32,494 bases of DNA from a virus. Lineage: Duplodnaviria > Caudoviricetes. The DNA lies in IMG/VR virus record IMGVR_UViG_3300014613_000067, positions 1 through 32,494 of that record; one strand, 5' to 3'. This document shows positions 8,719-30,909 of this stretch, in pieces (position 1 is the stretch's first letter; every line of letters begins with the position of its first letter). The notes beneath the pieces were generated by a model. The model made no database searches. It saw only the letters and a program-made list of their open reading frames with translations, and was not told the origin of the DNA. The translations under genes and the position numbers were made by a program.

Positions 8719-9114
8719 TTAGGACGCTTTTATTCGCTTTGACACCTGGACCATCTGCTCGACTTTACCGCCGATAAAATCATCCATATAGGCCATCCCG
8801 GCCTTGTTGGCCACTGTGATGGCCGTGGGGGCCATAGTCTTAACCTTGGCTATCGCCATCCGCCTTAGTTCATCGGCCTCTTCTGGTGTCAATTTCCCAT
8901 CCTCCGCCGCTTTCCTGGCAGTCTTCTCAAGGTCATTAACCACACTGAGAGTTATTTCCGATATCTGCCCCATGGCATTATTAATAGCCTCGTTTTTGGT
9001 CTTAGACCTGATATAGCCATTCAACTCTTTCAACCCCCAGGCAATCAGGGACCCGACAACGGCCACACCTGCAGGTACCAATATAGCCATTATTTGGGCT
9101 GCAAAATCTTCCAT
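8719..9114 (-). CDS. Putative holin (LL-H-like, single N-terminal TM helix)
   Basis: TM helix then amphipathic helices; last gene of the late operon; RBS AAAGGAG. Confidence 0.65.
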   Translation of the reverse strand: MEDFAAQIMAILVPAGVAVVGSLIAWGLKELNGYIRSKTKNEAINNAMGQISEITLSVVNDLEKTARKAAEDGKLTPEEADELRRMAIAKVKTMAPTAITVANKAGMAYMDDFIGGKVEQMVQVSKRIKAS

Positions 9115-9568
9115 GTTTTCTCCTTTCAGATGGTAAATACTGCATCTCTAACTCATTGATTATGTCCCGAACAGGTAGTTCCTTGGCCTCATCTCCACTA
9201 AACGCACCGCCACCACAATAATAAACAGCAATGAAATATGTCATTGCCCGATAAAGTCTATTCTTATCCAAAAAATTATCCTCATGAATTACAAGCAATA
9301 TCATATTAAGTAGGAAAACAAGATCGGCTATTAATTTATCTTCCTCTATTTCTGCCTTGTGATACATCCAGTCATGTTTCTGGCAGGCCGGGAACATATT
9401 TTGAAGATAGTTTGTATCAGGGACTAACCAGTCCCCAAATTTCCCGGGGCCTCACCCACCAGTATTATTTTCTAATTCCTCTTTGGTGGCATCCCAGAAA
9501 CTCACGGGAGCAAATTGCAATATCCCGTTCTCACGCCTGCTTTCTATTTGATAACTTCCAAACTTCAC
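9002..9568 (-). CDS. PLA2/DUF1353-like HDxxY protein with in-frame TGA (candidate selenoprotein); start uncertain, GTG 9568 or TTG 9520
   Basis: Frame reads FAPVSFWDATKEELENNTGG*GPGKFGDWLVPDT...ACQKHDWMY...ADLVFLLNM. Confidence 0.65.
9417..9454 (-). promoter_or_regulatory. UGA codon plus candidate bacterial SECIS hairpin
   Basis: GGGACU-GGUU-AGUCCC; loop begins 23 nt after the UGA. Confidence 0.6.
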
Positions 9569-9574
9569 TTTAGA

Positions 9575-9601
9575 GTAATCCGTGTAATCTGCGAAATCTG
9601 T
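9575..9601. repeat. 9-mer tandem repeat x3
   Basis: gtaatccgt gtaatctgc gaaatctgt. Confidence 0.7.
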
Positions 9602-9604
9602 GGA

Positions 9605-10210
9605 TTAAAATGGGTCTATATATCTACGCATCCCCGCCCGTGAATCTATGGGGCGCACCTTGATGAAAGCGTTTTCTCTCATGGCATCATTTAATGTCTT
9701 TACAAGAGGGCCGCCGCCGGATGCCCCTATGGCCAGGGTATCGTTCAAGCAAAGCTCTATATGGACAGCTTTGCCCGCGCTGTTAAACCAGAATACAAGG
9801 GCGCCCCTTACCGGGGTTTCTATTTCGAGATCGACGAACCGGTGGTAAAGCGTATCCGCTGTCCAGTCGCCTTTGCGGGGTAACAACCCCACTGATTTAA
9901 GGGACTCTATTATATACCCGCTGCAATCAAAGCCGGCGGGATCATCGCCGCCCCAAAGATAGGGAGTCCCCAAATAGCTCCAGGCTACAGATATGACGGT
10001 TTCCCGTTTGGATTCGCCGTTCCCGATAATAGCCTTTAAGAACTGTTCTATATTTTCGCACCGGTGTTTGACCCTGCTTGTCTTCTCCAGGATCTCCTCC
10101 GGGTCCAGTTCGGCCTCTATGGCCCGCTCGATATCAATGATCATGCCCTTGATAACAGGCACATAATTTAATACGTTATGGCAAACATCGTCTATCTTGC
10201 ATTCTCGCAT
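9605..10210 (-). CDS. NlpC/P60 cell-wall peptidase (probable endolysin) with N-terminal helical extension
   Basis: YLGTPYLWGG...GFDCSG...HIEL. Confidence 0.85.
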   Translation of the reverse strand: MRECKIDDVCHNVLNYVPVIKGMIIDIERAIEAELDPEEILEKTSRVKHRCENIEQFLKAIIGNGESKRETVISVAWSYLGTPYLWGGDDPAGFDCSGYIIESLKSVGLLPRKGDWTADTLYHRFVDLEIETPVRGALVFWFNSAGKAVHIELCLNDTLAIGASGGGPLVKTLNDAMRENAFIKVRPIDSRAGMRRYIDPF

Positions 10211-10211
10211 A

Positions 10212-10619
10212 TCAACCCTTACCATTCACACTGGATATCGCCTCAGTGATTTTATCGCCCATTTTAGACAGGGCCATTGTAAAATCCTCTTTTGTTACCT
10301 TTATGCTGCTATTAAAGTCTTCTCTTATCTCCTTGATCCCGCCAAATAGCAGATCAAACTTTTTGCGCCCATGCTCCAGATCCTTCTCGATAAGCTCTCT
10401 GACGTGACCAATCTCTGTCTTTAATTCTTTTTCCATTTTGACCTGCTCTCTAATACAGTGTTTGTTTAATTCGTCTAGTGTAACTGCCTGATCACTTGGT
10501 TTATGAGTCTCGGTCTTTGCCTCTATCCATCCCCGGATTGCCCATATGGTGACGCCTAAAAAGAGGACACCTATAATCGCCTTGAAAACCCAGTCTATGG
10601 CTACTGAAAGATTTTCCAT
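10212..10619 (-). CDS. Membrane protein with coiled coil (lysis cassette)
   Basis: N-terminal TM helix plus coiled coil. Confidence 0.7.
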   Translation of the reverse strand: MENLSVAIDWVFKAIIGVLFLGVTIWAIRGWIEAKTETHKPSDQAVTLDELNKHCIREQVKMEKELKTEIGHVRELIEKDLEHGRKKFDLLFGGIKEIREDFNSSIKVTKEDFTMALSKMGDKITEAISSVNGKG

Positions 10620-10621
10620 CT

Positions 10622-10942
10622 TTATTGGTCTTGCTGATCATTTTCCTCTGTTTTTTCTATCTGTTCCGGGATGGGTGCCGAGGGCTTATCTTCCTCCTTT
10701 ACCTCGCCCTTTATGGCGTCTACCTGGTAGGTTTTCAATGCGTTGATTCTCGCGCTAATATTTTGCCAGGCCGCGTGGAGCTGCTGTAATCTCTCCTGGT
10801 GGTAAAGGTTTTCCCACTGAATAGATTTTAACCGTTCCTCGAGGAGAGTAATCTCTTGCTGTTTTGCGCTCTCCTCCTGGGCGAACACCAGGGGTGCCAT
10901 TGCCAAAACGACTACGACAAGTAACACAACAATCTTTTTCAT
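10622..10942 (-). CDS. Exported coiled-coil protein
   Basis: Signal peptide MKKIVVLLVVVVLAMAPLVFA; RBS AGGAGG. Confidence 0.75.
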   Translation of the reverse strand: MKKIVVLLVVVVLAMAPLVFAQEESAKQQEITLLEERLKSIQWENLYHQERLQQLHAAWQNISARINALKTYQVDAIKGEVKEEDKPSAPIPEQIEKTEENDQQDQ

Positions 10943-12238: not shown

Positions 12239-13612
12239 TTATCTTATCCTCCCCTTGATTTTGATATAAGTCTGTTGAACCAGATCCGCATCATCGAAGT
12301 TTATGAAAACCCAGTTCCCACCTTCCACAACTCGATGGTCAATATCAGTTCCCCGCACTTCAACCTCAGATGTAGTATTTGCCCTTAAATCTGCTTCGAT
12401 ATCATTATCGTGAGACGGACAGGCATCGGCGGTCCACTCCTCCACGTCGACCTGGTAATCTGTAGCATTACTAAATATCTGCATATAAACACTGTCGATG
12501 ATGATGCCGTTAGGATACGTGTCCTTATCAATCTTGAGCCAACCAACCAGTGGCGACACCCCAGATCTAACATCATCCGCATTAAAAGTATTAGCATTTA
12601 CAATCACTACGCTCACGCCTGACAGGGTGGCCCCACTGTCTGATCCAAATAGAAGTTTTGGAATAAAAAAACCTGTGGTCATTGTCCTTGCGGTTTCCAC
12701 CCCACCTGCAACCAATGAGAGCATATCCGCTGCTGGCCTATAAAGACCAGTATTTTCATCAATGTTAAACGAATAAGAAGGCAAGTCAAAAGATCCAGGA
12801 TACCTTAGTATTGCTGGGCTTCCTATGCCTCCTGATCCTAAAAAGTAAGATTGATTTATCCCAAATCTTACGATACCTCCTATGGTAAACCTTAAGTAAT
12901 CATCTTCTGATTCATAAATTCCAGTATCCATATCTCCAAAAGCAATCGTAGGGGTTATAGCATTATTCTGTTGGGGTAGGTAGTGCTTACCTTCGTTCGT
13001 AATTCCACTGTCCGTAACGGTTATGGCTCCAACTACACGTAGACTTACCCCAGAAGGCACAGTCACAGTCTTTGACACCCCACCGTCAACAGTAACATAA
13101 ACACTATTCCCTGTCGCTGTCGTGCTAAGCCCGTTAAGACCTTTCAGGAACATTCCCCCTACGGCATCCCCAAGAATGGCTGACTCCGCTTCGGTCCCAT
13201 CATCAGTCTGGATTGTAGTCAACCCCGACGCACCAACGGCGGTCGCGGTTGAAGTAATAACCAGGCCAAAGGTTCCACCGGCGCTATCTGATGGAGTCAG
13301 GTTGATACCGGCTCCTGCCGTCAATCCAAAATTAGCCGCACCTGTTAAGGTTGCTCCGCTATCCGCCCAAAGACTGACACCTGAGACACCTCCTGTGCCC
13401 GCCGCTGTAGTCATGGTGGTCCCGTCAAAAAATGCAATCCCTTTGAAGGTCTGCGTACCCGACCAGGTGTTGTCTTTCTTCAAGAGATAAGCGGGATCTC
13501 TCATCACCCTCGCATTGATGGGCCTTTTCCCCTCGCTATATGCGGGCGATAAAACCGAGCCAAGCAATGAAACGATCAGGCTAAAGAATATTATAGTTTT
13601 CCACCTATCCAT
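12239..13612 (-). CDS. Tail fibre-like protein with N-terminal signal peptide (alternative start 13627)
   Basis: NTWSGTQTF fibre motif; two P-x-x-x-F-x-(x)-D-x-[DN]-TG-x-Y repeats; position after the internal proteins. Confidence 0.75.
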   Translation of the reverse strand: MDRWKTIIFFSLIVSLLGSVLSPAYSEGKRPINARVMRDPAYLLKKDNTWSGTQTFKGIAFFDGTTMTTAAGTGGVSGVSLWADSGATLTGAANFGLTAGAGINLTPSDSAGGTFGLVITSTATAVGASGLTTIQTDDGTEAESAILGDAVGGMFLKGLNGLSTTATGNSVYVTVDGGVSKTVTVPSGVSLRVVGAITVTDSGITNEGKHYLPQQNNAITPTIAFGDMDTGIYESEDDYLRFTIGGIVRFGINQSYFLGSGGIGSPAILRYPGSFDLPSYSFNIDENTGLYRPAADMLSLVAGGVETARTMTTGFFIPKLLFGSDSGATLSGVSVVIVNANTFNADDVRSGVSPLVGWLKIDKDTYPNGIIIDSVYMQIFSNATDYQVDVEEWTADACPSHDNDIEADLRANTTSEVEVRGTDIDHRVVEGGNWVFINFDDADLVQQTYIKIKGRIR

Positions 13613-13626: not shown

Positions 13627-14508
13627 TTATGGCTCATTGGTATAGCAATCAATCCTTACCGCGATCTCGGCCAGGGCCTCCATTTTTAGATTGTTCAGTT
13701 CTTTGCGGTTCAAGAACCGGTAATCCCCTACCTCTAAAGTCATTGCATTGGCCCTGTTGATGCTCGATCCGTCTTTCGTATAAAATACGCTATTGCCCGA
13801 GCCGACTATCTGCATCTCGACCCACCGGGTGCCTGCCGGGATACCGTTACCGTTATCATCGGCGGCGGTCGTGCTTGTCCCTGAATTGGCATTCAGGCTG
13901 TATACCCGATTGCCGATAACAAAGGGCTGGGGCGGCACCCACCATGCTCGATCAAACCCGCTGGTAATGCCGACCTGGGCGTTATCGAACGGCGTAATAC
14001 CCGATGGTAAAAAATAGCCTCGCATGTAATTAGCCGGCCCTGTCTCAAAGAAATAGGGAACAACCGTATTACCCGAATTAATAGCCAGGGCGGTAAATAC
14101 CGGTGTTAGCTCTGCGTTGGCCCAGGCCTCCGGTGTATTCTCCTGCGCCGTCTTAATAAAGAAAGCCGCTGTTGTCCCGGACGAAAAATCGCTCGTACCT
14201 GTGGCCGCCTGGGACGGGTCCAGGTCGACAATGTCCACCCGGAAAAGCCCGCCCGAATCGCTGATATCAATCGTGTAAAGATCGGTCTTCAGCTCATCAG
14301 GGATCGGGCCGTAGCGGCGGGCCATGTTGGACACACCGGTATCTGTGGTCGCCGTGGCCGCCGTGGTATTCCCGGAGTCATAGACCGTCGCACCGGAACT
14401 GGGCACGGTCATCAGGGTAAACACCCATTTCTTTGTCCCGGCCTCGGCCTGGACCGATAAGGCCAGGAGAACCGCTACCATCAATAAAAATCTTCCTATC
14501 CGTTTCAT
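13627..14508 (-). CDS. Virion-module beta protein with signal peptide
   Basis: MKRIGRFLLMVAVLLALSVQAEA; RBS AAGGAG. Confidence 0.8.
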   Translation of the reverse strand: MKRIGRFLLMVAVLLALSVQAEAGTKKWVFTLMTVPSSGATVYDSGNTTAATATTDTGVSNMARRYGPIPDELKTDLYTIDISDSGGLFRVDIVDLDPSQAATGTSDFSSGTTAAFFIKTAQENTPEAWANAELTPVFTALAINSGNTVVPYFFETGPANYMRGYFLPSGITPFDNAQVGITSGFDRAWWVPPQPFVIGNRVYSLNANSGTSTTAADDNGNGIPAGTRWVEMQIVGSGNSVFYTKDGSSINRANAMTLEVGDYRFLNRKELNNLKMEALAEIAVRIDCYTNEP

Positions 14509-14549: not shown

Positions 14550-17500
14550 TTACTGCGCGGCTTCCGCCTGTTGTTTTATATGCCCGTAATCAACCGCCAT
14601 TCTCAATGCCGGCGACTCCTCAAGCAACCTGATATTGGCCAGGGCCATTGCCTCATTCCTGTAGCGCTTGATATGCACTTCCTTCATGTCCGGACTTGCA
14701 GATCTGTACTGAGGATCATTTTTCACCATGTCATCCAGGCTGCTCTTCAGGCCTTTTCCGGTCGAATTCAGGGGGACGGTATTCATGAGCACCAAAAAGC
14801 GGTCATATTCATGTGGTGGCAGATTCAGGGCCACGCCTTCAAAGCTCATAACTTTTTTCGGTTTAGCAATGGGCAGCCGAAGCCTGATCAGTTCCCTGTC
14901 GATAGGCGAATCCTTTGCCTTCGAAAGATAGAATGGAGAGAGGGCGCTAAAGGCCGTTTCAATCCAGGAGCGATCCTTGCTGTAAGCGGTCGTGATAGGT
15001 TCGCCCCACAGATCGCGGCGGGGAGGAAGATCGGAGGAAAGACCAGGTATCCTGGATTTCATGGCATCTATTATGCTGTATACCGCCTCCATCTCCGGGT
15101 CCATGGTACGTTCTACCTGGGCGAACAGGGCGGGCACCATTGACCGGGCAAAGTTCTGGATATATCTTTGTCCGTATCGATCGGGATCATGTATGGCCTC
15201 TATGGCTTCGGAGACGCCCTTCATCCAGGTCTTGCTCGTGACGTTCTTTGACAGGGCCAGGGCGATCGCAGCGGCAAGCTTATCCATTTCAGGCTGCATT
15301 TCTTCGCCTGCCAGGCCCGCTATCTCCGTAAAATCGGCTGCCGCGCCTAAAAGTATTCCCAGGGGCTCAAGACGGTTAAAGGATATATAGGTATCGCCTA
15401 TTCTCATGGAATAGGGCTGCCATCCGGTCCTGCGCAAAGCGGCCTGCATCTCAGGATCTGATGGTCCGCCACCCGTAATAAGGCCCTGGGCAGCCAGATA
15501 GCCCGTTGATATCATGGCTGTGGATCCCATGGAGACCCTGGCGAGGGCCAGATCCCTGCGTGCGCCGCCCGCTCCGATTTCAGACCAGAATCTCCTTGAA
15601 GCAAAGGCGAGCGGGGTCCGCTCAAAGCCGCCTTTCATGATGTTTACCGGCGTTCTCACAAAAGGTGTTATCAACCGGAGCACGGGAACTTGAGATAATA
15701 TGCCCTGAAATTTTCGGCCTATTTCGCCCAGGGGCTGTGTGAAGGTCTGATATCTGCTCGCATCCACTGCGGCCATATGGATATCAGGGGCGATCTCTTC
15801 TGGGTTTTGAATGATCTCCTGTATCCGTTTTGCCATGCTTACGCCCTTCAGCCCCTCGTCAATGGCCTGGCGGTTCGCCCTGGCATGGAGTTCCATCTTG
15901 TAACCAACGGATTTAAAGAGTTCATCCTCGGCTGTGAGGAGCCTTCCCGGCACCCTGACCATTTCACCCATAAGGTCAACGGCTTGGGCGGCCATACCAC
16001 CCTGCTCCAGGGCATTGGGGCTGATCTTTTTTATAAGTCTGCCCGGAATAGTCTCACGGAGATTCTCTGCTGTAATGGCACGGTGCACCCTGGTCTCTAC
16101 CTTGGTCAGTTGCTCGGAGGGCTCGCCGGTGCGCAGGGCCTTGGCGGCTAATTTCCACCCGTCCTGCAGGCCCTCCATAAGCCCGTATGCCTGGCTTATA
16201 GCTTCCTGGGCCTTGACGGCCCTGGACCCCGTGATCTGGCCGATGCCTGCGGCCACGAATCTTTCCGGAATCTGCCACACGGCAAACAGGGTGTTGGATA
16301 GGGTATTGGTTGCATGGGTCTGTGGACCGGAAAGCAGACCGTTAATCCATGCCTCAAGAACCATATCAAAGGTGGTTGCACGACGGATCTGGCGGGCAAA
16401 GGTATTCACTCCTTCTACCGTATCAAGATGGGAGACCATTTCGGCTATCTTTGAGGTAGACATACCACCAGGAAGATTCTCAAGAAGTTCCTTGATGGCC
16501 TTTGTCTGGCCTTCCATGCCGGCCACGCTTATACCGAAAGCCTGAAGAGCCCTGCCAGCCTCGGCAGTCATACCGGAGACCTGGGCCTGAACGGCATAAT
16601 GCACATTAAGATGCTTGATAAATTCAAACCTGTCGATATCATTGGCATCGATGCTCGATGCCTTTTTAGAAAGCTCGACAAGATGCTCTGCGGATGACAC
16701 CAGAATCTGCCGTGCAGCCGTGGCCTGTTCGGCGTTAAAGGCCTCGCCTTTACGGCGTTTCAGCAGGGTCTTGACATCCATGCCCAGCAGATCTGCCAGC
16801 TTTCCGGTCTCCTCGTTTGAGATCATGCCGCGACGGGCGGCATCGATGCCGGACGAAAAAAGATCGGCGGTCTTAGCTATGGCCTCCTGGACATCATCCG
16901 ATGACTTGATGTTGGCAAAATTAATATTGACGGCCTTTTCGGGAAGATCCTGGATATTTGTCTGAAGAAAAAGGGAGGCCTTTTTTTCTGTCTCCGGTGC
17001 CAGCTCTACAAGAGGCTTACTGGAATCGCCCAGGACGTAGTTTAGGCGGGTTTCAAGTTCGAAGGGTGGTTCTATTGCAGCCCTGGGCGGGATTATATCA
17101 CCTTCTCCGACTCCCTGCAAAGGTTTCTCTCCATATTCCGCATTAATATCTTTCACCACAGAAGCGGTAAGCTCATCATCAACCTTTTCTGCCTGGAGAT
17201 TGGTCTTCACCCTCTCAACGGCATCCCGGACAAGCTGGGCGGATGGTTTAACGCCCTTTTTGGAAAAAGCCTTGATGATGCTTTTTTCTAAAAGATTCTC
17301 CACGCTCATACCGGAGACCATGCCTATCAGCACATTAAAGGGCATCGCAAGCCTCGGGTACTTCTCGCCCACCTTTTCGGTGGCAATGCCTACGGGGTAG
17401 TCCGCAATGGCGCCAACACCTGCCGCAGTAATCGACCTGGCCAGAGCGGGCATTAATTTCATACCGGCGCTCCATGCCACTTTCCCTGCTCCGGCAAAAC

Positions 17501-17855
17501 CACCGGAGGCGGCCGGTAGGGGATCGACCCAGGGTTCTTCAAGCCCGCCCATCATGGCCTGGATTTCTTCATCTGTTTTCCCTGATGATTTTTGCTGATC
17601 TATAAATTCCTGTTTTTTCTTCTCCTGATCTTCCGGAGTTAATCCGGGCTTTTCTGCTTTTCCCGGACCGGCTGGTTGCGATTTATCCCCATACCTGAAA
17701 AGCGCCTGCACGGCCGGAGAATGAAATTCATGGCTGATCTGGCGGTTTTCGAGATAGGCCCCGCTCACATCATCCTGAATATAATCTTCGGTCATTACAG
17801 GCTGGCCGGTCTTGGTGTTAATCCCGTCAACGATTTGTACTTTCGGTATCTCCAT
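14550..17855 (-). CDS. Large internal virion (ejection) protein
   Basis: 1101 aa, helical; PFVRTPVNI and GWQPYS motifs; T7 gp16-like position. Confidence 0.75.
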   Translation of the reverse strand: MEIPKVQIVDGINTKTGQPVMTEDYIQDDVSGAYLENRQISHEFHSPAVQALFRYGDKSQPAGPGKAEKPGLTPEDQEKKKQEFIDQQKSSGKTDEEIQAMMGGLEEPWVDPLPAASGGFAGAGKVAWSAGMKLMPALARSITAAGVGAIADYPVGIATEKVGEKYPRLAMPFNVLIGMVSGMSVENLLEKSIIKAFSKKGVKPSAQLVRDAVERVKTNLQAEKVDDELTASVVKDINAEYGEKPLQGVGEGDIIPPRAAIEPPFELETRLNYVLGDSSKPLVELAPETEKKASLFLQTNIQDLPEKAVNINFANIKSSDDVQEAIAKTADLFSSGIDAARRGMISNEETGKLADLLGMDVKTLLKRRKGEAFNAEQATAARQILVSSAEHLVELSKKASSIDANDIDRFEFIKHLNVHYAVQAQVSGMTAEAGRALQAFGISVAGMEGQTKAIKELLENLPGGMSTSKIAEMVSHLDTVEGVNTFARQIRRATTFDMVLEAWINGLLSGPQTHATNTLSNTLFAVWQIPERFVAAGIGQITGSRAVKAQEAISQAYGLMEGLQDGWKLAAKALRTGEPSEQLTKVETRVHRAITAENLRETIPGRLIKKISPNALEQGGMAAQAVDLMGEMVRVPGRLLTAEDELFKSVGYKMELHARANRQAIDEGLKGVSMAKRIQEIIQNPEEIAPDIHMAAVDASRYQTFTQPLGEIGRKFQGILSQVPVLRLITPFVRTPVNIMKGGFERTPLAFASRRFWSEIGAGGARRDLALARVSMGSTAMISTGYLAAQGLITGGGPSDPEMQAALRRTGWQPYSMRIGDTYISFNRLEPLGILLGAAADFTEIAGLAGEEMQPEMDKLAAAIALALSKNVTSKTWMKGVSEAIEAIHDPDRYGQRYIQNFARSMVPALFAQVERTMDPEMEAVYSIIDAMKSRIPGLSSDLPPRRDLWGEPITTAYSKDRSWIETAFSALSPFYLSKAKDSPIDRELIRLRLPIAKPKKVMSFEGVALNLPPHEYDRFLVLMNTVPLNSTGKGLKSSLDDMVKNDPQYRSASPDMKEVHIKRYRNEAMALANIRLLEESPALRMAVDYGHIKQQAEAAQ

Positions 17856-19406
17856 TTAATCGACCTTGAGTTTTTCGTACTCCTCTTTCCCCTGCTCATT
17901 AATATTCTCCCAGGCGGATACGATATTCTTGAGCTGATCTATAAGCTGCAGCTCATCAAGATATGCCGTCTCTGAGATCTCTTTTTTGAGATATGCCTGG
18001 GCGGAGGCCTCCTCCGCTGTAATAAGATCCGCCAGGTTATTCTTTTGCCCCTTCAGGAACATGGGCCTCCGCAACCCATGAATCGATCGGCGCAGATCGG
18101 AGGTATAGGAATTCACTACTGTTTTTGAAGCGTTCCCAGGCTCCATGCCCGAATCTATCAGTGTGTTGAACCTGTCCATGGCCTCGGCATATTTGAGGTG
18201 TTTGTCCTGGCTCCATCTGTCGGCTTCAGAAGGTTCCAGGGCGCGTGCGACAAAGGAGACCGCATCTTCATATTCTTTCTTTACAACCTGCCCTATCATT
18301 GTGATGTAAGTCCCATCTTTTATATCACCCCTTTGAAGGGCGGCCTTCAGGAGCGGGCGTGCATCCCTTCCTCTTTCTATCTCCTCCTGGATCTCTCCGA
18401 GGACTATCGGATTGTTTTCCTGGGGAGTCTTTTCGGGTTTCTCCATCCTGTCTCTGATGTTTATATAAGCGCCCTCGCTGATCTCCCTTGCGCTGGCTAT
18501 CTCTTCAAGCATTTCAAAGGTCATCGTCTTATTAAAAAACCCCTGATATGCCTGGTAATCGCTGTTTTCAATAAGTTGTGTCCTGATCTTTTCTATCTCT
18601 TTTTCGGCATCTTCCTGCTGTTTGATCTGTTGTTTAAGATTGGCCTGGTGAAGTCTAAGCGCATGATCACTCAGTGTAATCTTGTCTCCTGGGGTCAGAG
18701 AGGGGTAATCATCCGGATTGAATTTTTCTGGATTCCTCCTTAAATCCTGCCCCGCCCTGGTCCTCTCCGTAGTCTCTGAAAATTTGATTAGGTTTTCCCC
18801 CGCCTCCTGTGCCGTGATATAACCGGCGCTGAAGTTTTCGGCGGTGGCTACCTTAAATCGTTGGATAATGTCCTCCCGGCCCCCTTCGTCCTCGCCGGAA
18901 AAAAGTTTTTCATAGCTGTCTTTGGCATTGAAATAACTGGCCCGGCCAAAATCTGCCGTCTTCTTTCTGACAATTCCCCCGATCTTGACGCCCCCCTCCA
19001 GGTGCATCTTGACCAGGTCGTTGGTCAGGGCCTGAAACACATTGTCATCTAAATTCTTTTCTTCGTATCCCTTTTGTATGCCCCCTATCAGGTTATCCCA
19101 CTCAGCCTCGAAGTTTTTATAATCGTTCCTGCCCGCTAAACCCTTCTCAAAATCTGTTACCTGTTTCAGGGTATCGAGCTGGGTATTGTTCAGCTCGGTT
19201 ATCTGGCTCGCCTTATGCCACTTCTCCGCAAGCTCTGTTGCAATATCCGCTACCTTGCTCAGCTCACCCGCTGCCTGCCCTGCGCCAGAAGAAAAAGATT
19301 CCGCCTCTGCATGGATACCGGGAGGAATCCCGGGAATAGAGACCGGTCCGCCTTGCAGCCTGCCCAGGTTGATATCATCCCTTCTATATGTTGGTATGAC
19401 TGGCAT
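17856..19406 (-). CDS. Internal virion (ejection) protein
   Basis: MPVIPTY start; helical; gp15-like position. Confidence 0.7.
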   Translation of the reverse strand: MPVIPTYRRDDINLGRLQGGPVSIPGIPPGIHAEAESFSSGAGQAAGELSKVADIATELAEKWHKASQITELNNTQLDTLKQVTDFEKGLAGRNDYKNFEAEWDNLIGGIQKGYEEKNLDDNVFQALTNDLVKMHLEGGVKIGGIVRKKTADFGRASYFNAKDSYEKLFSGEDEGGREDIIQRFKVATAENFSAGYITAQEAGENLIKFSETTERTRAGQDLRRNPEKFNPDDYPSLTPGDKITLSDHALRLHQANLKQQIKQQEDAEKEIEKIRTQLIENSDYQAYQGFFNKTMTFEMLEEIASAREISEGAYINIRDRMEKPEKTPQENNPIVLGEIQEEIERGRDARPLLKAALQRGDIKDGTYITMIGQVVKKEYEDAVSFVARALEPSEADRWSQDKHLKYAEAMDRFNTLIDSGMEPGNASKTVVNSYTSDLRRSIHGLRRPMFLKGQKNNLADLITAEEASAQAYLKKEISETAYLDELQLIDQLKNIVSAWENINEQGKEEYEKLKVD

Positions 19407-19420
19407 AGCTCAATATAACT

Positions 19421-20062
19421 TTAGAACCCCGTTAATAATGATTGGTCTTGCTTTTTCTTGCTTTTATTATAAACATCAGCTACCTTTGACGCCCCTGTCA
19501 GTATCGTTGTCCCTGCCTGATAGGTACCTGCCCGTCCCGCCTGCGCTCCCTGCATCCGATTGAGGGCCGCCCCGGATCGCAATACATCGGACGTGCTTGC
19601 ACCCGCGATCATGGCGGTATCTGCGCCCGTCTGATACTGCCATGCCTTATACTTCCAGTTGTAGGCCTCTGTCTCTCCCCGGCGCAATATACCCAGGCGG
19701 TCGTAATCCACCTCCAGCATGGTCTGGACCAGGACATCGATCGGGGTTCCCTCCAGCAAGATACCGGCCTTGCCGTATTTAGCCTTTTGTGCGGCTATTA
19801 ACCGGCGGCCTTCTTCACCCTTTTTTTGGGCTTCCTCTTCAGCTTCCGTCGTGGCCACGGCGGCGTTATACTCTGCATACTCGACCTGTTGTCTGGCAAC
19901 GTCCGCCTCGCGCTTTGCGTTATACTCCGCCCACTGGGCCTGGTTCTCTCCCACAAGGGCGTTATATTCCCTCGCCTCTTCCTGCTCCTTCCCTTGCTGG
20001 TATTGGCTATAGGCGGCTGTAGCGGCGCTGAGGATTGTCATAATGACCAGGAAAACTTCCAT
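19421..20062 (-). CDS. Internal virion protein (gp14-like)
   Basis: Ala/Gln-rich; QKAKYGKAGILLEGTP. Confidence 0.75.
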   Translation of the reverse strand: MEVFLVIMTILSAATAAYSQYQQGKEQEEAREYNALVGENQAQWAEYNAKREADVARQQVEYAEYNAAVATTEAEEEAQKKGEEGRRLIAAQKAKYGKAGILLEGTPIDVLVQTMLEVDYDRLGILRRGETEAYNWKYKAWQYQTGADTAMIAGASTSDVLRSGAALNRMQGAQAGRAGTYQAGTTILTGASKVADVYNKSKKKQDQSLLTGF

Positions 20063-20081: not shown

Positions 20082-22340
20082 TTAGTCCTCTGTCGTAACC
20101 TTCACAACAATTGACCGTATAGTTAAGGGTAGCGGTTCGTCCTGGACTACGGTAATGTAGCCCTCCTTTTCATATCCGCCCGGATAACTTATCTCCTTGT
20201 CCCCGGTAAAAAGATTGGTAGTGCCGCTTTCGGTCACTACGTCTAAAAGCTTATCTTCGTTCGGACCTACTGCAAAATTCTTTGTCTTATAAAGTCGTAG
20301 TATCGCCTTTGATATGCGCTTTATCCTGCCCTGGGACGTGCCGCCGTCCTCGGCGGGCGCTTCCAGACGCATGGTTTTGAGCGTGGCGGTATAAGGGAGT
20401 CCTATATGGACTTTGCTCGCCGCTTCCAGGATGCTGAAATTTCCGTCCGCGTCTACGGCGGCGCTCGTCACGCCTCCATCGGCCAGGACGCTGACCCCTG
20501 AGTCTCCATAAATAGTCGCTCCGGTTAAAGCCGTAACCGGGGACCCGGAATAGCTGAGGCTTCCGTCCAGGAGAATCGCGTCTGCAAGGTCTGTGCCGGT
20601 AAAGTGGGGGTTCAGGACTTCGATGAATCTTTTCTCATCTCCGTTTATAATTCTTTTGACAACCACATAGAGATCGTCTTGCATGTCTCCCGGTATAACG
20701 GCGGCGCTCTCAAACGAGCCTTGCGTAGTGTGGCGATGCCATGCGAATACCTCATGCTCCGGCAAATAGGTCAAACCTAATAAATTCCCATCCGCCCTGG
20801 TGGCCCACAAAACGCTGAAAGGTTCCTGTTGAAACGCCAGCTCGGATACACCGCTCTCCGTGATATGTTCCGCCAGAACAGTCATGTCGGGCGCTACATA
20901 TCCGGCGCTCTCCCAGTTATAGGAAAGCTTCCTGATCTTCCTCCGTGCCGACTGTATAAAAAGGATATCCTTGCCGATATTTGCGGCCATGCGGTTATAG
21001 GACCCGTATACCAGCTCTCGCTTGGCCGTGATATTTGTCGGGATAATGGGATCATCCGGATCTGTGGCGCTGATACGCCACTCCCCTGCGGTTGTGCCCA
21101 TGGTGAGATAAATAGATGGCACAAGCCACTGAATAGCGTTTACCTGGTCTGATGCCAGGGTGATAATAATAGCGTCGTCATCCAATACTCCGGTGGTAAA
21201 ATCGGTAAAATCCCCGGATTTGGATATCCATACCGTGTTGGGTTCGGTGTTGGTGTTGGCAAATATCAGCCGGTTTTCATGGAAGGTGCAGCATGAGGGG
21301 TAATCATCGGCCCCGGTAAAGGGGTCGGCTGTAAAGGCGCTGGCCCCGCTTATCGAGGTAAGGGCAAAATTGGTGTGGCCGCTCCTCTCAAGTATGTAGA
21401 CATCATAATCCGGGTGGGTCAGGTACATTACATCGGCGCTCTGGCACCATTTCAGATCATCAAGATCCCCTTCCTGATAGGGTGTTTCTATTTCATAGGC
21501 GGGATCAGCTTGTTTAATTTCAATTTCATCAAAATAATGGGTAACCCCGGAGCCGCCGCCGCCTTTCACCTCCAGTGTTATTTCGGCGGTTGATGCGTTT
21601 GCATAAAAATCAAAAGTGTGTTCCGTCCAGGCGGCCGGTGGGGACGATAATCCGGATTCGTATATCCTGTCTAAACCTACCCATAATGTCACCTCAATAT
21701 AATAAGGGGGTGCGTTGGAAACTCCTGATCCCGCTTTGACAGCCCAATGAAATTGATGTTTTTCACCCTCCTCGATCGGTATATCACTCTGTTCAACAAC
21801 ACCCCACTGACCTCCACCGGTCCCATTTAACGCCAGGCAATGTCCAGTTACCCCCCCTGCCACACTACTTGCATAACCCCTGACCAAAGTCCAGTCCGTA
21901 ACCCCTGCGCCGAAATCGCCATTTGAGACCGCATTAGAGGACCAGGGATCACCGCTCAGGATCTGCCCCTGGTTCATATAGAACCGCATGTACTCCTCGC
22001 CTGCCTCGATAATATAGGCCTGCTCGGTGGAAAATTCAAAAGGGATCAAACGACATTTCTTGTCGTAATTTTTGACTTTTGCCACATGGGCGAATCCCGG
22101 CCGCTTGGTCGCAGGACCGTGCGGGTACACAAAGAAGTTTTCAAGCTCAATGCAGCCGCTCTGATATTTTGCCATATCGGTGCGGCCTTCCATGAGAGGG
22201 GAAAGCTCGCCCGAGGTGAAGTTGGTTATGGCAATATGGGTATCTAACGCATAGGAGCAGGGGGCAAAGAGCGGGGCGCAAAAAGCCAGAATAGATATGA
22301 CTAATAGGGTGATATTTCTTTTTTTTGCGCTAAATGACAT
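20082..22340 (-). CDS. Tail tubular protein B / nozzle (T7 gp12-like) with signal peptide and CBM-like insertion
   Basis: TNFTSGELSP, KRPG, RLIPFEFS, QSADVMY, FHENRLIFA, AWHRH, HIGLPY. Confidence 0.9.
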   Translation of the reverse strand: MSFSAKKRNITLLVISILAFCAPLFAPCSYALDTHIAITNFTSGELSPLMEGRTDMAKYQSGCIELENFFVYPHGPATKRPGFAHVAKVKNYDKKCRLIPFEFSTEQAYIIEAGEEYMRFYMNQGQILSGDPWSSNAVSNGDFGAGVTDWTLVRGYASSVAGGVTGHCLALNGTGGGQWGVVEQSDIPIEEGEKHQFHWAVKAGSGVSNAPPYYIEVTLWVGLDRIYESGLSSPPAAWTEHTFDFYANASTAEITLEVKGGGGSGVTHYFDEIEIKQADPAYEIETPYQEGDLDDLKWCQSADVMYLTHPDYDVYILERSGHTNFALTSISGASAFTADPFTGADDYPSCCTFHENRLIFANTNTEPNTVWISKSGDFTDFTTGVLDDDAIIITLASDQVNAIQWLVPSIYLTMGTTAGEWRISATDPDDPIIPTNITAKRELVYGSYNRMAANIGKDILFIQSARRKIRKLSYNWESAGYVAPDMTVLAEHITESGVSELAFQQEPFSVLWATRADGNLLGLTYLPEHEVFAWHRHTTQGSFESAAVIPGDMQDDLYVVVKRIINGDEKRFIEVLNPHFTGTDLADAILLDGSLSYSGSPVTALTGATIYGDSGVSVLADGGVTSAAVDADGNFSILEAASKVHIGLPYTATLKTMRLEAPAEDGGTSQGRIKRISKAILRLYKTKNFAVGPNEDKLLDVVTESGTTNLFTGDKEISYPGGYEKEGYITVVQDEPLPLTIRSIVVKVTTED

Positions 22341-22351
22341 CTCCGGGATCC

Positions 22352-22393
22352 TCAATCTTCATTCTTCAATAATCAATTTTCAATATTCAAAAC
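22352..22393. repeat. 7-mer tandem repeat (TCAATNT x6)
   Basis: tcaatct tcattct tcaataa tcaattt tcaatat tcaaaac. Confidence 0.8.
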
Positions 22394-23193
22394 CTTCCAG
22401 CCGTCTGCCAGCTATTAAGTTCTCTCTCGTCAACCTGCTTGCCCTTCCGTGCCTCGATGGCCATGATATCCAATCGGGCCTTATTCAGCTCAATGCCGAT
22501 CTGCTGTGTTAATGTCTTCGAGGCGGCCAGTTTTTGACAGAATTGATATGCCAGGGTGAGGTAAAGCACATAGATAAAGGAAGGGCTGAATTTGGTCGTA
22601 TCCGTTATTTGTGCGATATATTCCAGGTCGATCGCATCGTCATTGACAAGCAGGTATTTCTCCTCGATGTCATAGTCGGCGGCGCTGTCATAGAGTTTGT
22701 GATCTTTCAGGAAATCAGAGGGCAGGCTGTACTCATACTCGAACTCAAATGGCGGCCTGAGTCTCACCTTGCCGCCTGACGTGTACGCGCCAAAGGCGGT
22801 GCCGTCCACGTCTTCCAGCTCAAAGGTATCTGTGGCCACATTAGCGATGCGGTAGGTATTGGTGTTTAAATCGGTCATGCCCCCCACGTCGGATATATAG
22901 ACATGGCGATAATCGGTAAAGCCATGTCCGGCGCATGTGATGACAACGGGATCGGCCTGGGTGGCCCCGGTAATGTCTTTTATCTGGTCATCGGAATCTA
23001 TGCTGATACGGCGCCTTGCGAACGGCCAGGGGAACATCTCCAGGACCTCGTCCCGCTTCTGTTCATAAAGCAGGTTGGCAAGCAGGGCATAGGGCTCGCT
23101 GCCCGTAAAGTTGGGGGGTTGGGCGCTCTCCTCAATCATGAAGTCCCCGATCCTGGCCAGTGCCATGTTGCATATATCTTTGGCTGTTGCCAT
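22387..23193 (-). CDS. Tail tubular protein A / adaptor (T7 gp11-like) with FCCH-like insertion
   Basis: DICNMALARIG, PWPFARRR, YSLPSDFL. Confidence 0.9.
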   Translation of the reverse strand: MATAKDICNMALARIGDFMIEESAQPPNFTGSEPYALLANLLYEQKRDEVLEMFPWPFARRRISIDSDDQIKDITGATQADPVVITCAGHGFTDYRHVYISDVGGMTDLNTNTYRIANVATDTFELEDVDGTAFGAYTSGGKVRLRPPFEFEYEYSLPSDFLKDHKLYDSAADYDIEEKYLLVNDDAIDLEYIAQITDTTKFSPSFIYVLYLTLAYQFCQKLAASKTLTQQIGIELNKARLDIMAIEARKGKQVDERELNSWQTAGRF

Positions 23194-24613: not shown

Positions 24614-25603
24614 CTATGCCGCTACCAGGGCGGTCTCTGTGTTCAACAGTTGGTCCACCTTACGGACCGGGATACCCCAAAACTTGGTGACCGGGTTCCC
24701 GAAAGCATCATCAACCTGCGTGAAAAAGCGGTTGTTGCTGTCAGATGCGGCGATATCCATCTGTGTCTTGATGGTCTCGTTGACGTAGATGGCCGGCTTG
24801 CAAAGTTTCATGTTGGGTATTTTGTTATAGGCCTGGATCAGATACTTATGATCAAACGTGTTGGCGTCTCCGGCGGTCTCCACGTTGCATACCCTGACGA
24901 TATAGCGCCAGTCCTGTACGCAAAGCCCGGTCTTCCACTCCCACCAACTCACAAATGCCAGATACTCCCCGGCCGGTGTCTGGTCGTCGGATACCAGGAT
25001 AGGCTCGCCCTTACCCACATCGGTATGCTGGATACCGGCCTTGGTGCCCTTGGGGAAAATCATGTGGACGGTGTTCTCTCCCCAGCCTACCAGCCAGATG
25101 CTCGTTACATCGCTGCCGCTCCCGCCGTTATTGATCACGTTCGGGGCATCCGAGTATGGATACCTGGCGGCCATCCCCAGGAACTTCTCCGGGGTCAGGT
25201 CGGTATCGTAATAAAAAATACCGCCTGCCAGGTCCTGGTTCATGGCGCTGATATAGGGTTTTTCCTCTGCCAGCCTGGCAAGTGTGGTGCCGCCGTTCAG
25301 TTCGACGAGCCCCTTGTCCGCCTTGGCCAGGGCGCTGAGCATGCCGCATGTGTCTGTGACCTGAATGGTGGTAAACTTGCTCGGCTGAATACCACGATTG
25401 AGCTTGCGCCAGGTGACGGTCGGCTGCCCGGTCAAAACGGTGGTCTGATGACCGGTCGGAAGATTACCCTCTTTGAAGAGGGCATCTTCCAATACCTCAT
25501 TGGTCTCACTGAGGATGTCGACTATTTTGGCTATCTTGCCGTCCGGGCCGATCCGCTTGGCCCAGTCTGCAAGGGTGTATACATTGGTTCCGATAGTTCC
25601 CAT
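24614..25603 (-). CDS. Major capsid protein (BPP-1 Bbp17-like)
   Basis: TLADWAKR, EGNLPTGH, TSIWLVGWG, DWRYIVRVCN, GIPVRKVD. Confidence 0.92.
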   Translation of the reverse strand: MGTIGTNVYTLADWAKRIGPDGKIAKIVDILSETNEVLEDALFKEGNLPTGHQTTVLTGQPTVTWRKLNRGIQPSKFTTIQVTDTCGMLSALAKADKGLVELNGGTTLARLAEEKPYISAMNQDLAGGIFYYDTDLTPEKFLGMAARYPYSDAPNVINNGGSGSDVTSIWLVGWGENTVHMIFPKGTKAGIQHTDVGKGEPILVSDDQTPAGEYLAFVSWWEWKTGLCVQDWRYIVRVCNVETAGDANTFDHKYLIQAYNKIPNMKLCKPAIYVNETIKTQMDIAASDSNNRFFTQVDDAFGNPVTKFWGIPVRKVDQLLNTETALVAA

Positions 25604-25608
25604 TGTTG

Positions 25609-26334
25609 CTACCCTCCTTTATTTGCTGCTTTCATTTCGGGGAAAATTTGATCCGCCGGGCTCTCATCCTCTGCTCCTCCTCCTCGATCTCCGGTAAGCA
25701 GTTTATCCTCGTCAATAAACCCTTTTAGCTTTTCAATCTCGGAGGAGATTTTAAAGCAGAACTCGACTAACCTGGGATTATCGCCCAGCCCGCTTGTTTC
25801 CAGAAACTTCGCAAAGTCCTCGCCTCCATGCTCCAGGGCGATTGCCATTGCGTTTTCTGCATTCTTCGAATAATCGTTTCCCCATTTTCCCTGAAGGGCT
25901 TTGACCTGGTCGTCGTGATACGTCTTGCGTTTTGTCTGCAAGTCTTCGAATACCTTGACGGCCTCCTCGTTATATGTCGAAAACAGCTTCTCACCCGCTG
26001 CCTTGCTGAGGCCCAGGTCGTGGATGACCTTACGGAATTTCTGCTCTCCCTCCTTGTCGTAAGGCATGCCCTCCGGGAGTTGCGGCTCCGGTAATGCGTA
26101 GCCGTCCGGGGTTTCGGGTCGTCCCAGTCTGTTATAGAAGGTTGCCCGGTCTTCGTCGGTGGCCTTATCCCCTAACAGTTGGACGGAGTTTGCGGTCCTC
26201 CCATGCAGGTCAATAAAACTCTTCCCCAGATCGCCTATGGTTTCGTACTGGGTCAGTGTTTCGTTGCCCTTGAGGTCGTCCGGTAATTGCGCCGCCCATG
26301 CGGGTGGTGTTCCGCCGTTATTTACATCTGCCAT
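25609..26334 (-). CDS. Capsid assembly / scaffolding protein
   Basis: LGRPETPDGY, WGNDY, GLGDNP; lies between portal and MCP. Confidence 0.8.
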   Translation of the reverse strand: MADVNNGGTPPAWAAQLPDDLKGNETLTQYETIGDLGKSFIDLHGRTANSVQLLGDKATDEDRATFYNRLGRPETPDGYALPEPQLPEGMPYDKEGEQKFRKVIHDLGLSKAAGEKLFSTYNEEAVKVFEDLQTKRKTYHDDQVKALQGKWGNDYSKNAENAMAIALEHGGEDFAKFLETSGLGDNPRLVEFCFKISSEIEKLKGFIDEDKLLTGDRGGGAEDESPADQIFPEMKAANKGG

Positions 26335-26620
26335 GGTTACTCTCCTCTCGTAATTTAATAGGGTATTTTTTGGCTATATCAATAAGCGCTATGGTAATGG
26401 GCATAATAGTCTGGTGCTGCAATACGCCCATGTCTTCTAATATTTTTACTGCCACATTCCGCTTTATTCTTTCCTCCTCGGTCTTGCACTCGCTGAAAAA
26501 GTAATTCTTAGTTAAAATATCTGCAAGAATCCTGGTCAAAGCCGGTGTCGAAAAGGCCGCCTGATAATCCCTTGACCGGTTTTCAATCATATTTTCATAT
26601 GCTGTTTTCTCGCCTGCCAC
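26318..26620 (-). CDS. Bbp19-like small protein
   Basis: DYQAAFST...ILADI; directly follows the portal. Confidence 0.65.
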   Translation of the reverse strand: MAGEKTAYENMIENRSRDYQAAFSTPALTRILADILTKNYFFSECKTEEERIKRNVAVKILEDMGVLQHQTIMPITIALIDIAKKYPIKLREESNHGRCK

Positions 26621-26621
26621 C

Positions 26622-28367
26622 TTAAGCCGCTCCTGCCTGTGCCATTAAACCGGGTAGGTTTTTGAATATTTCGCCACCACTCGCCTGATCCGCCTCGGCC
26701 AAAGTCTTGGCCCCTGCTAATCCCTCCATAAGCTGCCTCTTGGCCGCCTCGGCTTGTGCCAGATCCTCCCTGACCTGGCGCATTTTATCCACCTCTTCGG
26801 TAGACCTGGTAGCCTTTTGAGGGTAATTATTGGATTCCAGTATCTCCCTGGCTGTCTCGTCCTCGTTCACAACATCCAGCACATGAGGGAACATCTCGGC
26901 CAGGGGTTGCAGGGCTATGAGACCCTGGGTAATGCTTTGTGTTTTAAAAAGCCGCCGTTGGGCCTGGGCCAGAGGGCCTAAATAAGTGACGCCGATGGGA
27001 CCCGCGCCGTAATCCCAGTAGATCTGGGGGACCTCCGGTAATCTCCCTGCCCTGTATTCGATCTGAAACACCCTGTTCATATTGGGATCAAGGCAATCCT
27101 GGTTAAGTCTGCCGATTGCCGTAGCCATGAGGGCCGCTTTCTCGCCGGCCCGCTCCAGGATCTCTGTAGCGGTCATCTGCCGTTTCGCCCTGGTCAGCAT
27201 AAGAAAAAAATCAAGATGAAAATGCCGCTCGATCACATCCCTGATACGGTCCTCCCTGTCAGTGCCGATCGGGTAATTAATCCCGGTCTGGACAGGCGTA
27301 ACGATCCGATTATGATCGTCACCATAATAATTAAAACCGTGCGGTATGATGTTGACCTTACCTAACAGTTCCGCCGGAACGTTATAAGCCGGATCTACCG
27401 ACATGCGGCTCGATCTGAGCATATCCTTGCTGATAAGGTTTAAAGACATGATATCGGCAAGGGCGAACATGGCCGGGCTGCGGCCGTAGGTTTCGAGGCT
27501 GCTCTTGCGGTACCGCCAGACATGGTACGGTAGACCGTCGTAACCCCACTCACTTATGACCTTCCTGGAGGTTATATCCACCCAAACAGATGCAAACGAC
27601 TTATTGAGCCCGTCCAGCTTATCGGGATTGCGCTTGGTCCTGGGGTAAACGGCGTGCAGGTACGGATATTTTTCGTATGGATTTGTTTCAAGGGAACGCT
27701 GGGCGGCATCCGATAGTTTTCCCTTACCGAATCGCTCCTTCGCCTTCTTGGCTGTCAGCTTTTCCTTTCTGAAAACGGTGTCCACTTCGCCGTATTGGTT
27801 CTCTGCGATATATACCTGGCCGGGGTGCATTGTGGTGAATGCGATCTTCCCCTCACCCTTATTCTCTTCCGAGTAGATCGTTGCCGTGCCGATCGTGCCG
27901 CCGTCCTCAAAGTAGGGCGTCATGGCGGAGTAAAAGTTAGAACGCTGATAGGCCCGGTACATGCCTATATCCGCTTCCTGGAGCCAGGCCTTTATCTCCG
28001 GGATGTCCTCCATATACTCATACCTGGCAATATAGGGCCTCATTGGCCCCCTCGTCATAGCGCCGGGTTGGCGGGCCGATAAACGGTCCTTCACCGACAC
28101 CTTGAGAGTCTGTCTGAACCACAAAATATTGGCCGGGATAAGGTGGCCGCTCATCCCATCCACATACACCTGCACGGCGTAAATAGGGTTGCCGTTATAT
28201 ATCTTGGTGGCCAGGCGCTGGCCCTCGGCCTTCTCCATCCTGATATCTTCCCTGATAGGGGCGACATGGTCGGCTACATCCTGCCATGTCTCCTCGTAGG
28301 GGTTGCGGATCTCCTCCAGGTTTTTTTGAGCTGATAGGAGGCTTTTTGCTATTTCATCTTCTGGCAT
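26622..28367 (-). CDS. Portal (head-tail connector, T7 gp8-like)
   Basis: SNFY, GTATIY, VDTVFR, YGRSPAM, MTATEI, YLGPLAQAQR. Confidence 0.93.
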   Translation of the reverse strand: MPEDEIAKSLLSAQKNLEEIRNPYEETWQDVADHVAPIREDIRMEKAEGQRLATKIYNGNPIYAVQVYVDGMSGHLIPANILWFRQTLKVSVKDRLSARQPGAMTRGPMRPYIARYEYMEDIPEIKAWLQEADIGMYRAYQRSNFYSAMTPYFEDGGTIGTATIYSEENKGEGKIAFTTMHPGQVYIAENQYGEVDTVFRKEKLTAKKAKERFGKGKLSDAAQRSLETNPYEKYPYLHAVYPRTKRNPDKLDGLNKSFASVWVDITSRKVISEWGYDGLPYHVWRYRKSSLETYGRSPAMFALADIMSLNLISKDMLRSSRMSVDPAYNVPAELLGKVNIIPHGFNYYGDDHNRIVTPVQTGINYPIGTDREDRIRDVIERHFHLDFFLMLTRAKRQMTATEILERAGEKAALMATAIGRLNQDCLDPNMNRVFQIEYRAGRLPEVPQIYWDYGAGPIGVTYLGPLAQAQRRLFKTQSITQGLIALQPLAEMFPHVLDVVNEDETAREILESNNYPQKATRSTEEVDKMRQVREDLAQAEAAKRQLMEGLAGAKTLAEADQASGGEIFKNLPGLMAQAGAA

Positions 28368-30186: not shown

Positions 30187-30909
30187 TTAACCGCTTATCA
30201 GCTCCGCTTTTTGTTGTACGCTGATCGCGGAATCGTATTGCAGCCGAAATGTCTGGTTGTCGCCCTGGGCGTCTATGCGAAATGTGCTCGCCCCTGTAAC
30301 AAATACACCCTCTCGATCAAGAGCCCTGAGCGTGCCGGTTACGGTCGTGCCGCTGTTATCTTCTGTCGGCTGCCAGAGGTAGATCGGTGACGTGCTCGTG
30401 TCCGGTTTTGTCAGGCTGAATTCATAGCCGTCATTGGCCGCTGTGGGGGTTACCGGTGCAACTGTCAGCCCAGTAAACGCTTTTGCCCATACGGTTAAGC
30501 CGGTCGTCCCCAAGGGGAGGGCGCTGTTTGAGATAGCCGTCAAATCTATCTCAAAGGTACTCGCCTTATACAGCGATGGATCAAGAATAAAAATAGATGC
30601 GCCGCTCTCCTCCGTAGCAGTGAGCTGGTTGTAGTTTGTCACTTTAAAGACACGCGAATAGAAGCGGCTGACACCGGCGTCCGTTATGGTGTCATCCCCT
30701 GAACCGCAAAAATCGAGATTTCTCGTAACGCCCAGGTCTCGAAATCCGCCCTCGCCCCAGGGGTTGGTAGCCCGGCCGACCGTGCCCTGGTTTTTATACT
30801 GCGGATCAAACTCATATCTCGCATAGACCGTGCCCGCCAAAACAATCAGCAGAAAGAAAAATGTTAACCAGCTCCCGGTTAATCTCTTGATAACCTTTCC
30901 CATTTTCAT
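30187..30909 (-). CDS. Virion-module beta protein with signal peptide
   Basis: KVIKRLTGSWLTFFFLLIVLAGTVYA; RBS TAAGGAGG. Confidence 0.8.
   Translation of the reverse strand: MKMGKVIKRLTGSWLTFFFLLIVLAGTVYARYEFDPQYKNQGTVGRATNPWGEGGFRDLGVTRNLDFCGSGDDTITDAGVSRFYSRVFKVTNYNQLTATEESGASIFILDPSLYKASTFEIDLTAISNSALPLGTTGLTVWAKAFTGLTVAPVTPTAANDGYEFSLTKPDTSTSPIYLWQPTEDNSGTTVTGTLRALDREGVFVTGASTFRIDAQGDNQTFRLQYDSAISVQQKAELISG

Follow-up and report, generated by a model that had tools for sequence, protein, structure and literature searches.

A tail nozzle from an uncultured podophage carries a leader resembling a Sec signal peptide, which suggests assembly in two compartments

The tail nozzle gene of an uncultured podophage begins with 31 codons that have the features of a Sec-type signal peptide. 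The gene lies in a stretch of 32,494 nucleotides, referred to here as the window, which is a virus record about 85% complete present in sequencing runs labelled as groundwater and soil metagenomes. The leader is predicted to send the nozzle through the host Sec channel, signal peptidase I would likely cut after A31, and the nozzle would fold outside the cytoplasm, in the periplasm. The exported protein would meet the DNA-filled head and its adaptor once the inner membrane is breached, likely at lysis. We assign a probability of roughly 55% to this route as a whole, from Sec export and cleavage through folding in the periplasm to joining at lysis. Taken separately, export and cleavage are predicted with high probability, and joining of an exported nozzle to the head at lysis is moderately favoured. 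The accepted view is that assembly of tailed phages takes place entirely in the cytoplasm. Since it is the nozzle that retains the DNA inside the head, its export, if true, forces a different order of assembly, a different way of retaining the DNA, or assembly at the membrane.

The genes on the minus strand of the window include those for a terminase, portal, scaffold, major capsid protein, Bbp16-type protein, adaptor, nozzle and three ejection proteins, followed by a likely lysis region. The features relevant to the analysis are as follows.

30187..30909, minus strand: gene after the terminase, with a 30-aa leader (leader scoring); no match for its function
24614..28367, minus strand: major capsid, scaffold and portal genes, none with a leader (PHROG and leader scoring)
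22387..23193, minus strand: leaderless adaptor of the T7 gp11 type that contains an E1_FCCH-like insert (PHROG394, PF16190)
22347..22355, minus strand: ribosome-binding site of ATG 22340 (SD pairing)
22340-20082, minus strand: nozzle ORF, T7 gp12/Carin1 type
22248..22340, minus strand: putative nozzle leader, Sec-type, 31 aa (sequence rule, alignment, AF2)
22223-22197, minus strand: NFTSGELSP motif of the nozzle, N40 beginning at 22223
20082..22247, minus strand: predicted mature nozzle, 721 aa (PHROG376, 8ck1_A, Foldseek)
21564..21938, minus strand: carbohydrate-binding-like insert in the nozzle (PF02018, E 5e-4, below the Pfam cutoff)
14550..20062, minus strand: three ejection (internal virion) genes without leaders, two matching internal-virion PHROGs and the middle one assigned by position
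13627..14508, minus strand: first gene after the ejection proteins, with a 23-aa leader; possible virion role, from position only
12239..13612, minus strand: fibre-like protein with a leader, start ATG 13612 (fibre-type Atlas structure rows)
10622..10942, minus strand: small protein with a leader, next to the lysis genes; by eye its sequence is coiled-coil-like
8719..10619, minus strand: likely lysis region (NlpC/P60 and two genes with an N-terminal hydrophobic segment)
9605-10225, minus strand: NlpC/P60 peptidase, without a leader (PF00877, E 6e-11)
10212-10619 and 8719-9114, minus strand: two candidate holin genes with an N-terminal hydrophobic segment, the holin role being presumptive

A promoter scan of the window stayed at chance level. 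Other reading frames deserve mention. ORF 9002-9397 (minus strand), in the lysis region, has a C-x-x-H-D-x-x-Y motif, which we take to resemble the phospholipase A2 active site, and had no Pfam or NCBIfam match. The early-region ORF 3412-3888 (minus strand) combines a lipobox-like FSG-C with H-E-x-x-H and likely encodes an exported lipoprotein. The end of ORF 11771, at 10983-11108 (minus strand), is hydrophobic and terminates in LVG-C plus a basic tail; read from internal ATGs, it could be a lipoprotein of 36-41 aa just upstream of the lysis genes. Clustered strain variants were seen in other runs at 24947-24950 (capsid gene), 28849-29013 (in the 28591-29169 gene) and 31290-31475 (terminase).

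The identification of ORF 22340-20082 as a podophage nozzle of the T7 gp12/Carin1 type is firm on sequence and model comparisons; its hexameric placement on the adaptor in virions is only predicted. Profile searches matched the protein to PHROG376 (E 2.2e-180) and to the Carin1 nozzle, PDB 8ck1_A (E 3.6e-120). The AF2 model (pLDDT 84.7) had Carin1, LME-1 and T7 gp12 as its best fold matches (Foldseek: 8ck1_A, E 8.5e-46, TMq 0.63; T7 gp12 7ey7, E 1.5e-26), and the top 21 ranks among those listed were phage tail chains. The gene is found in single copy between the adaptor and the ejection proteins (the window record is 85% complete, relative G001 is complete). The carbohydrate-binding-like insert is present in three of nine members of its clade by alignment. 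The nozzle is a member of a known family with a leader added to it.

Nucleotides 22340-22248 (minus strand) encode MSFSAKKRNITLLVISILAFCAPLFAPCSYA (31 codons), in frame with LDTHIAIT-NFTSGELSP. The first-pass annotation had described a basic and hydrophobic stretch ending in S-Y-A at 22248..22340, and this description was confirmed. The leader has a basic n-region (K6, K7, R8), a hydrophobic core at about residues 10-25 and a c-region ending in S29-Y30-A31. Cleavage is predicted between A31 and L32 and would leave eight residues ahead of the motif. The leader is the only TM-grade stretch of the nozzle (19-mer KD 2.33 vs a best value of 1.13 after residue 32; 11-mer KD 2.97), and its core is free of charge. 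In the AF2 model a helix occupies residues 4-21, pLDDT falls under 50 at 26-30, and a strand follows at 33-38.

The start context strongly suggests translation from ATG 22340. The sequence TTGAGGATC at 22355-22347 pairs at -6.0 kcal/mol with a generic anti-SD, an ordinary strength among the late genes of the window (-0.4 to -12.1 kcal/mol), and the upstream TTG at 22355 scores only -1.0. The earlier observation that no in-frame ATG lies between the leader and the motif holds and extends to GTG and TTG, none of which was found between ATG 22340 and the motif. The near-cognate codons ATC10, ATA15, ATT17, CTG18, ATT36 and ATA38 showed no SD pairing. Among homologues, L001, L044 and L066 have the start codon of the leader overlapping the upstream stop or directly adjoining it, and no ATG, GTG or TTG was found within 23 codons upstream of the motif in L001, L044, L065 and L066. 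It is very improbable that the leader is untranslated or a chance extension of a nozzle that starts near the motif. Such a start could be sought at ATT36 or ATA38, which lie near the usual position, and L003, L035 and L043 do have a start codon 4-12 residues ahead of the motif; the lack of SD pairing at ATT36 and ATA38 speaks against it, as do the open, in-frame, variable leaders found across the clade and in separate lineages, where chance would give about 0.4%. This last figure comes from the in-house signal rule on which every leader call rests. Of 20000 random positions, 84 had a match to the rule 6-12 codons upstream (0.4%, a share that also counts true signals), and a match followed 36 of 2749 start codons. 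The 11 matches on the coding strand all fell at starts belonging to six real ORFs. The rule wrongly scored L092, a leaderless nozzle.

Contigs from all four runs examined span the leader free of indels, and no change is listed within it; one of these runs, X3, may be the source of the window DNA. An assembly artefact was ruled out as the origin of the leader because all four reproduce it intact. A comparison with L001 over 35 codons gave eight synonymous and eight replacement changes, and the replacements in the core remain hydrophobic. Third-position changes affected 4 of 26 leader codons vs 21 of 40 in the core; the coding signature of the leader is therefore weak, which counts against the favoured reading. 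The leader is a real feature and very likely a functional one.

Sec signal peptides cleaved by signal peptidase I carry small residues at positions -3 and -1. Basic residues (K/R) preceded the hydrophobic peak in 34 of 34 leaders; a strict [AVS]-x-A site was present in 20, and a permissive rule accepted all 34 but is easily satisfied by chance. The Tat route was rejected: the window leader has no twin-Arg motif, and RRx[FL][LIM] occurs in 2/34. The lipoprotein (SPase II) route was also rejected, since C21 and C28 fall outside a lipobox and only 1/34 leaders matches one; the lipobox, in the available passages of PMC9360617, ends in a conserved Cys. Judged by their sequences, the leaders are Sec/SPase I-like and neither Tat nor lipoprotein signals. 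The reading as a signal peptide thus gains support from the Sec/SPase I features, from a conserved architecture and from recurrence in separate nozzle lineages.

The region after the leader was also compared. Sec export favours a less basic early mature region. The eight residues before the motif were net positive in 4 of 34 leader-bearing nozzles vs 68 of 106 leaderless ones, and the next 60 residues had a net charge of +1.9 vs +3.8, with no difference over the last 300. On independent pairs the shift kept its direction and was not significant (4.7 vs 0.2 of 9, median P 0.06). Other blocks of the nozzle were also more acidic in the leader-bearing set, so that the shift extends in part further into the protein. 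Cysteines were not enriched in leader-bearing nozzles (0.62 vs 0.78 per 100 aa, P 0.09). Export driven by a need for disulfides was ruled out on this ground, since without extra cysteines disulfide folding does not explain it.

Among the 119 non-self homologues listed, nine carry leaders, namely the eight closest and P0018, while the remaining 110 have the motif at residue 4-10. The expectation that the motif lies within about 10 residues of the N-terminus therefore held for 110 of 119 homologues, for HTVC028P (residue 10) and for vir555 (residue 11), and failed for Carin1 (residue 16). Those three named phage records (two cultured, one assembled) are all leaderless. The alignment of N-termini suggested by the first-pass annotation showed leaders in all eight closest homologues, which form a clade with the window nozzle (SH-aLRT 99-100). 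Within this clade the leaders share 23% identity vs 64-69% for the mature part; as far as sequence can tell, the architecture is conserved and the sequence is not. A -3,-1 site stands exactly eight residues ahead of the motif in eight of nine members, the exception being P0009, which has none at the usual distance. Among leaderless starts the most frequent has the motif at residue 10 (68/111), which leaves eight residues ahead of it once Met is lost. The predicted cleavage would reproduce this commonest leaderless N-terminus because both leave eight residues before the motif. L066 and its sister L047 form a natural pair: a leader followed by ANVIITSF in the former, Met followed by SNVIINSF in the latter.

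The fixed register bears on whether the leader could instead be an uncleaved anchor that tethers the nozzle to the membrane during assembly, a reading we consider quite unlikely. The strongly hydrophobic core (11-mer KD 2.4-3.5 in the clade) and the missing site of P0009 would suit an anchor, whereas a cleavage motif in constant register in eight of nine members would not. Basic residues before a hydrophobic core put the C-terminal part outside, following the positive-inside rule (PMC9360617, in the passages available), and so even an anchored nozzle would be placed outside.

Leaders are also found beyond the clade. A profile of the clade matched 21,170 clusters at 50% identity, of which the best 150 were examined. 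The signal rule identified 26 leaders, 111 had short starts, three were intermediate and ten lacked the motif, two of the latter showing leaders by eye; the share of leaders among the 150 is biased upward, since leader columns were part of the profile. A quick ML tree was built from 155 mature sequences, with 13 of the 150 omitted and 18 others brought in; on it the leader label changes 12 times, nine of them forced by starred branches, from which the leader state would have changed at least nine times among nozzles; gain and loss are not separable on this tree, and some leaderless database proteins may be mis-started. The leaderless relatives L004 and L047 were checked at the DNA level. A complete relative of 45.9 kb, G001, has one nozzle ORF, and it bears a leader. 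G005 is a Desulfovibrio record; of 401 genomes from its phylum, 15 had nozzles. The N-terminus could be read at 12 of these 15 loci, and each of the 12 was leaderless.

The first-pass annotation had stated that the adaptor has no signal, creating a topological puzzle for assembly. The window adaptor indeed has none. Leaders scored on 0/116 adaptors, 0/54 portals, 0/38 scaffolds and 0/64 capsid proteins (redundant loci included), and the puzzle is real because the leader is on the nozzle and on none of the adaptor-class ORFs. Other classes gave 3/58 Bbp16-class proteins, 1/46 first ejection proteins, 1/11 large ejection proteins and 1/2 terminases, matches that by eye look like artefacts of start choice except for L065. 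In that locus, a homologue of the first ejection protein (L065:6728-7258) is extended at its N-terminus by a leader-like stretch, unexpected in a head-packed protein. In L066 a frameshift apparently divides the adaptor (9016-9937) into two ORFs, of which the second stops right in front of the nozzle ATG; this is possibly an assembly error.

Four more late genes of the window (30909, 14508, 13612 and 10942) and one early gene (3888) carry leaders. The feature is common to the whole clade and to other late genes of the phage, which goes beyond the earlier observation. In the 14508 family the leader was seen by eye in 10/10 homologues, and one of its members shares a contig with the leader-bearing nozzle L035; the model of the 14508 protein (pLDDT 70.7) has two predicted beta-sandwich domains, and fold searches gave no decisive match. 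For the 13612 protein the fibre-type Atlas rows (TM <=0.41) are a lead only. The 30909 gene has a leader in 3/3 distinct homologues (window, L001 and L002) and no Atlas match. Pfam, PHROG, NCBIfam, PDB sequence, Atlas and fold searches with the other leader-bearing proteins yielded nothing decisive (best Z 8.0). Strong leader scores on other genes occurred in 7 of 103 cases in leader-nozzle loci vs 46 of 1177 in the others. That every outer part is exported does not hold as a general rule, because two large post-ejection genes of G001 lack leaders. There are also phages with nozzles not scored as leader-bearing that have two to five other leader-bearing genes (L056/L134, L054, L060, L132, L047), and export of accessory proteins would therefore be wider than nozzle export. 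A pattern search for a leaderless gp17-type fibre start gave 0/6 leader loci vs 24/56 others (loci partly redundant), and the window showed none. The FCCH-like adaptor insert was present in 9/9 leader-nozzle loci vs 2/63 others (loci partly redundant), and a similar insert in the nozzle in 0/11 leader-bearing loci vs 48/111; this adaptor/nozzle exclusion does not hold among protein clusters (9/34 vs 29/111). For annotation, the warning is that a virion role should not be dismissed because a protein has a signal peptide.

Virions must be built from the leader-bearing nozzle because no other nozzle is present, G001 being a complete genome. Export, cleavage and late joining are favoured since the sole nozzle has a leader, its basic residues orient the C-terminal part outside, and a retained leader would be awkward. 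The awkwardness follows from T7, where the N-terminal strands of the nozzle belong to the adaptor-binding platform (PMC6702177, in the portions available). According to the same portions, adaptor binding in T7 reopens the portal valve, the valve holds only briefly and the nozzle alone holds the DNA. For this reason a head awaiting an exported nozzle needs an unexplained plug or late binding of the adaptor; by analogy, either the adaptor binds late here or the portal may hold longer. The leaderless NlpC/P60 peptidase of the window fits release by lysis. A complex prediction of adaptor and mature nozzle scored 0.00 with controls that did not fold, and was not used as evidence.

The wait of unplugged heads would be shortened if the exported and cleaved nozzle were joined to the head across an intact inner membrane, through a phage-made pore, before or without lysis. 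We regard this as unlikely. The membrane-segment genes at 10212-10619 and 8719-9114 and the small predicted exported protein at 10622-10942 might contribute to a pore, but no channel or ATPase gene of a known type was found among the 27 and 26 proteins scanned (one could be missing because the record is about 85% complete), and a leaderless peptidoglycan peptidase suggests ordinary lysis. Another reading of low probability is that export is leaky, so that a cytoplasmic share of the nozzle builds virions, while exported copies prevent superinfection or are discarded. Canonical assembly would be kept, and the frequent switches on the tree, with leaderless sisters, are what an optional feature would show. 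Against it, signal peptidase cuts on the outer side of the membrane, which would leave the cytoplasmic copies with a hydrophobic leader of 31 aa on the adaptor-binding platform, and no conserved internal start (L001, L044, L065, L066) would provide a shorter form.

Export followed by joining at lysis would have as its likely gain that neither finished virions nor free nozzle occur in the cytoplasm. It would hide the nozzle from cytoplasmic sensors, putatively such as Avs13, because Avs13 binds a tail nozzle in vitro (PMC13581612, in the passages available). Given this nozzle-sensing family, relocation of the nozzle suggests a route of immune evasion. Against it, other Avs families sense portal, adaptor and capsid (same passages of PMC13581612), and these stay in the cytoplasm. 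As a broader and tentative proposal, to which we give somewhat less than even odds, many uncultured podophage lineages may build their virions in two compartments, with DNA-filled heads in the cytoplasm and nozzle and appendages on the far side of the inner membrane, the two sets coming together only at lysis. This arrangement would have evolved repeatedly through a signal peptide replacing the start Met, and would hide the nozzle from Avs13-like sensors.

A host with two membranes is weakly indicated. CRISPR, binning and homologue leads did not yield a host. A 63-base contig of run X2 matches window positions 22379-22415 with one mismatch and continues into 26 bases that look to us like a type I-E CRISPR repeat; the contig is likely a host spacer against the adaptor-nozzle junction. 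A repeat-like loose end was absent from the five genomes searched. L035 is in a Ca. Dependentiae MAG and may be a mis-binned phage contig, and the few named NlpC homologues came from Bacteroidales, Deltaproteobacteria and Desulfobacterales. BK063671 (L157) is a virus whose listed host is archaeal (Methanomicrobiales) and which has a leaderless nozzle of the same family; the nozzle family therefore does not fix the type of host envelope.

No description of an exported nozzle or of such an assembly route was found in the open-access literature searched. The coat proteins of filamentous phages are exported with signal peptides and show that virion proteins can use host secretion. Filamentous phages extrude without lysis and have neither head nor tail, unlike the window phage with its portal, terminase, nozzle and lysin-type gene. 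The best sequence and fold match, the nozzle of Cobetia phage Carin1 (8ck1_A; PQ119497), is encoded directly after the adaptor/connector and starts MASNNYQPASSYIQPSF, without the hydrophobic leader of the window nozzle. The best-ranking cultured matches are tail tubular protein B of the Pelagibacter phage HTVC028P/HTVC010P group (37-46% identity), and HTVC028P is leaderless (three of 217 matching records were read at the N-terminus). In T7 the addition of the nozzle to the adaptor occurs in the cytoplasm. The fold and the order of head, adaptor, nozzle and ejection genes are the same in T7 (gp12/gp11) and in the window, but in T7, as the portions of PMC6702177 describe it, the nozzle joins the adaptor straight after packaging, whereas the window nozzle carries an export-type leader. 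The nearest hint of a precedent is gp41 of Pseudomonas phage A1002, a tail component of a podophage. The virion map lacks its first ~33 residues, for which the authors suggest proteolysis (PMC13730344). This protein is a fibre and not a nozzle, and the available passages name no signal peptide.
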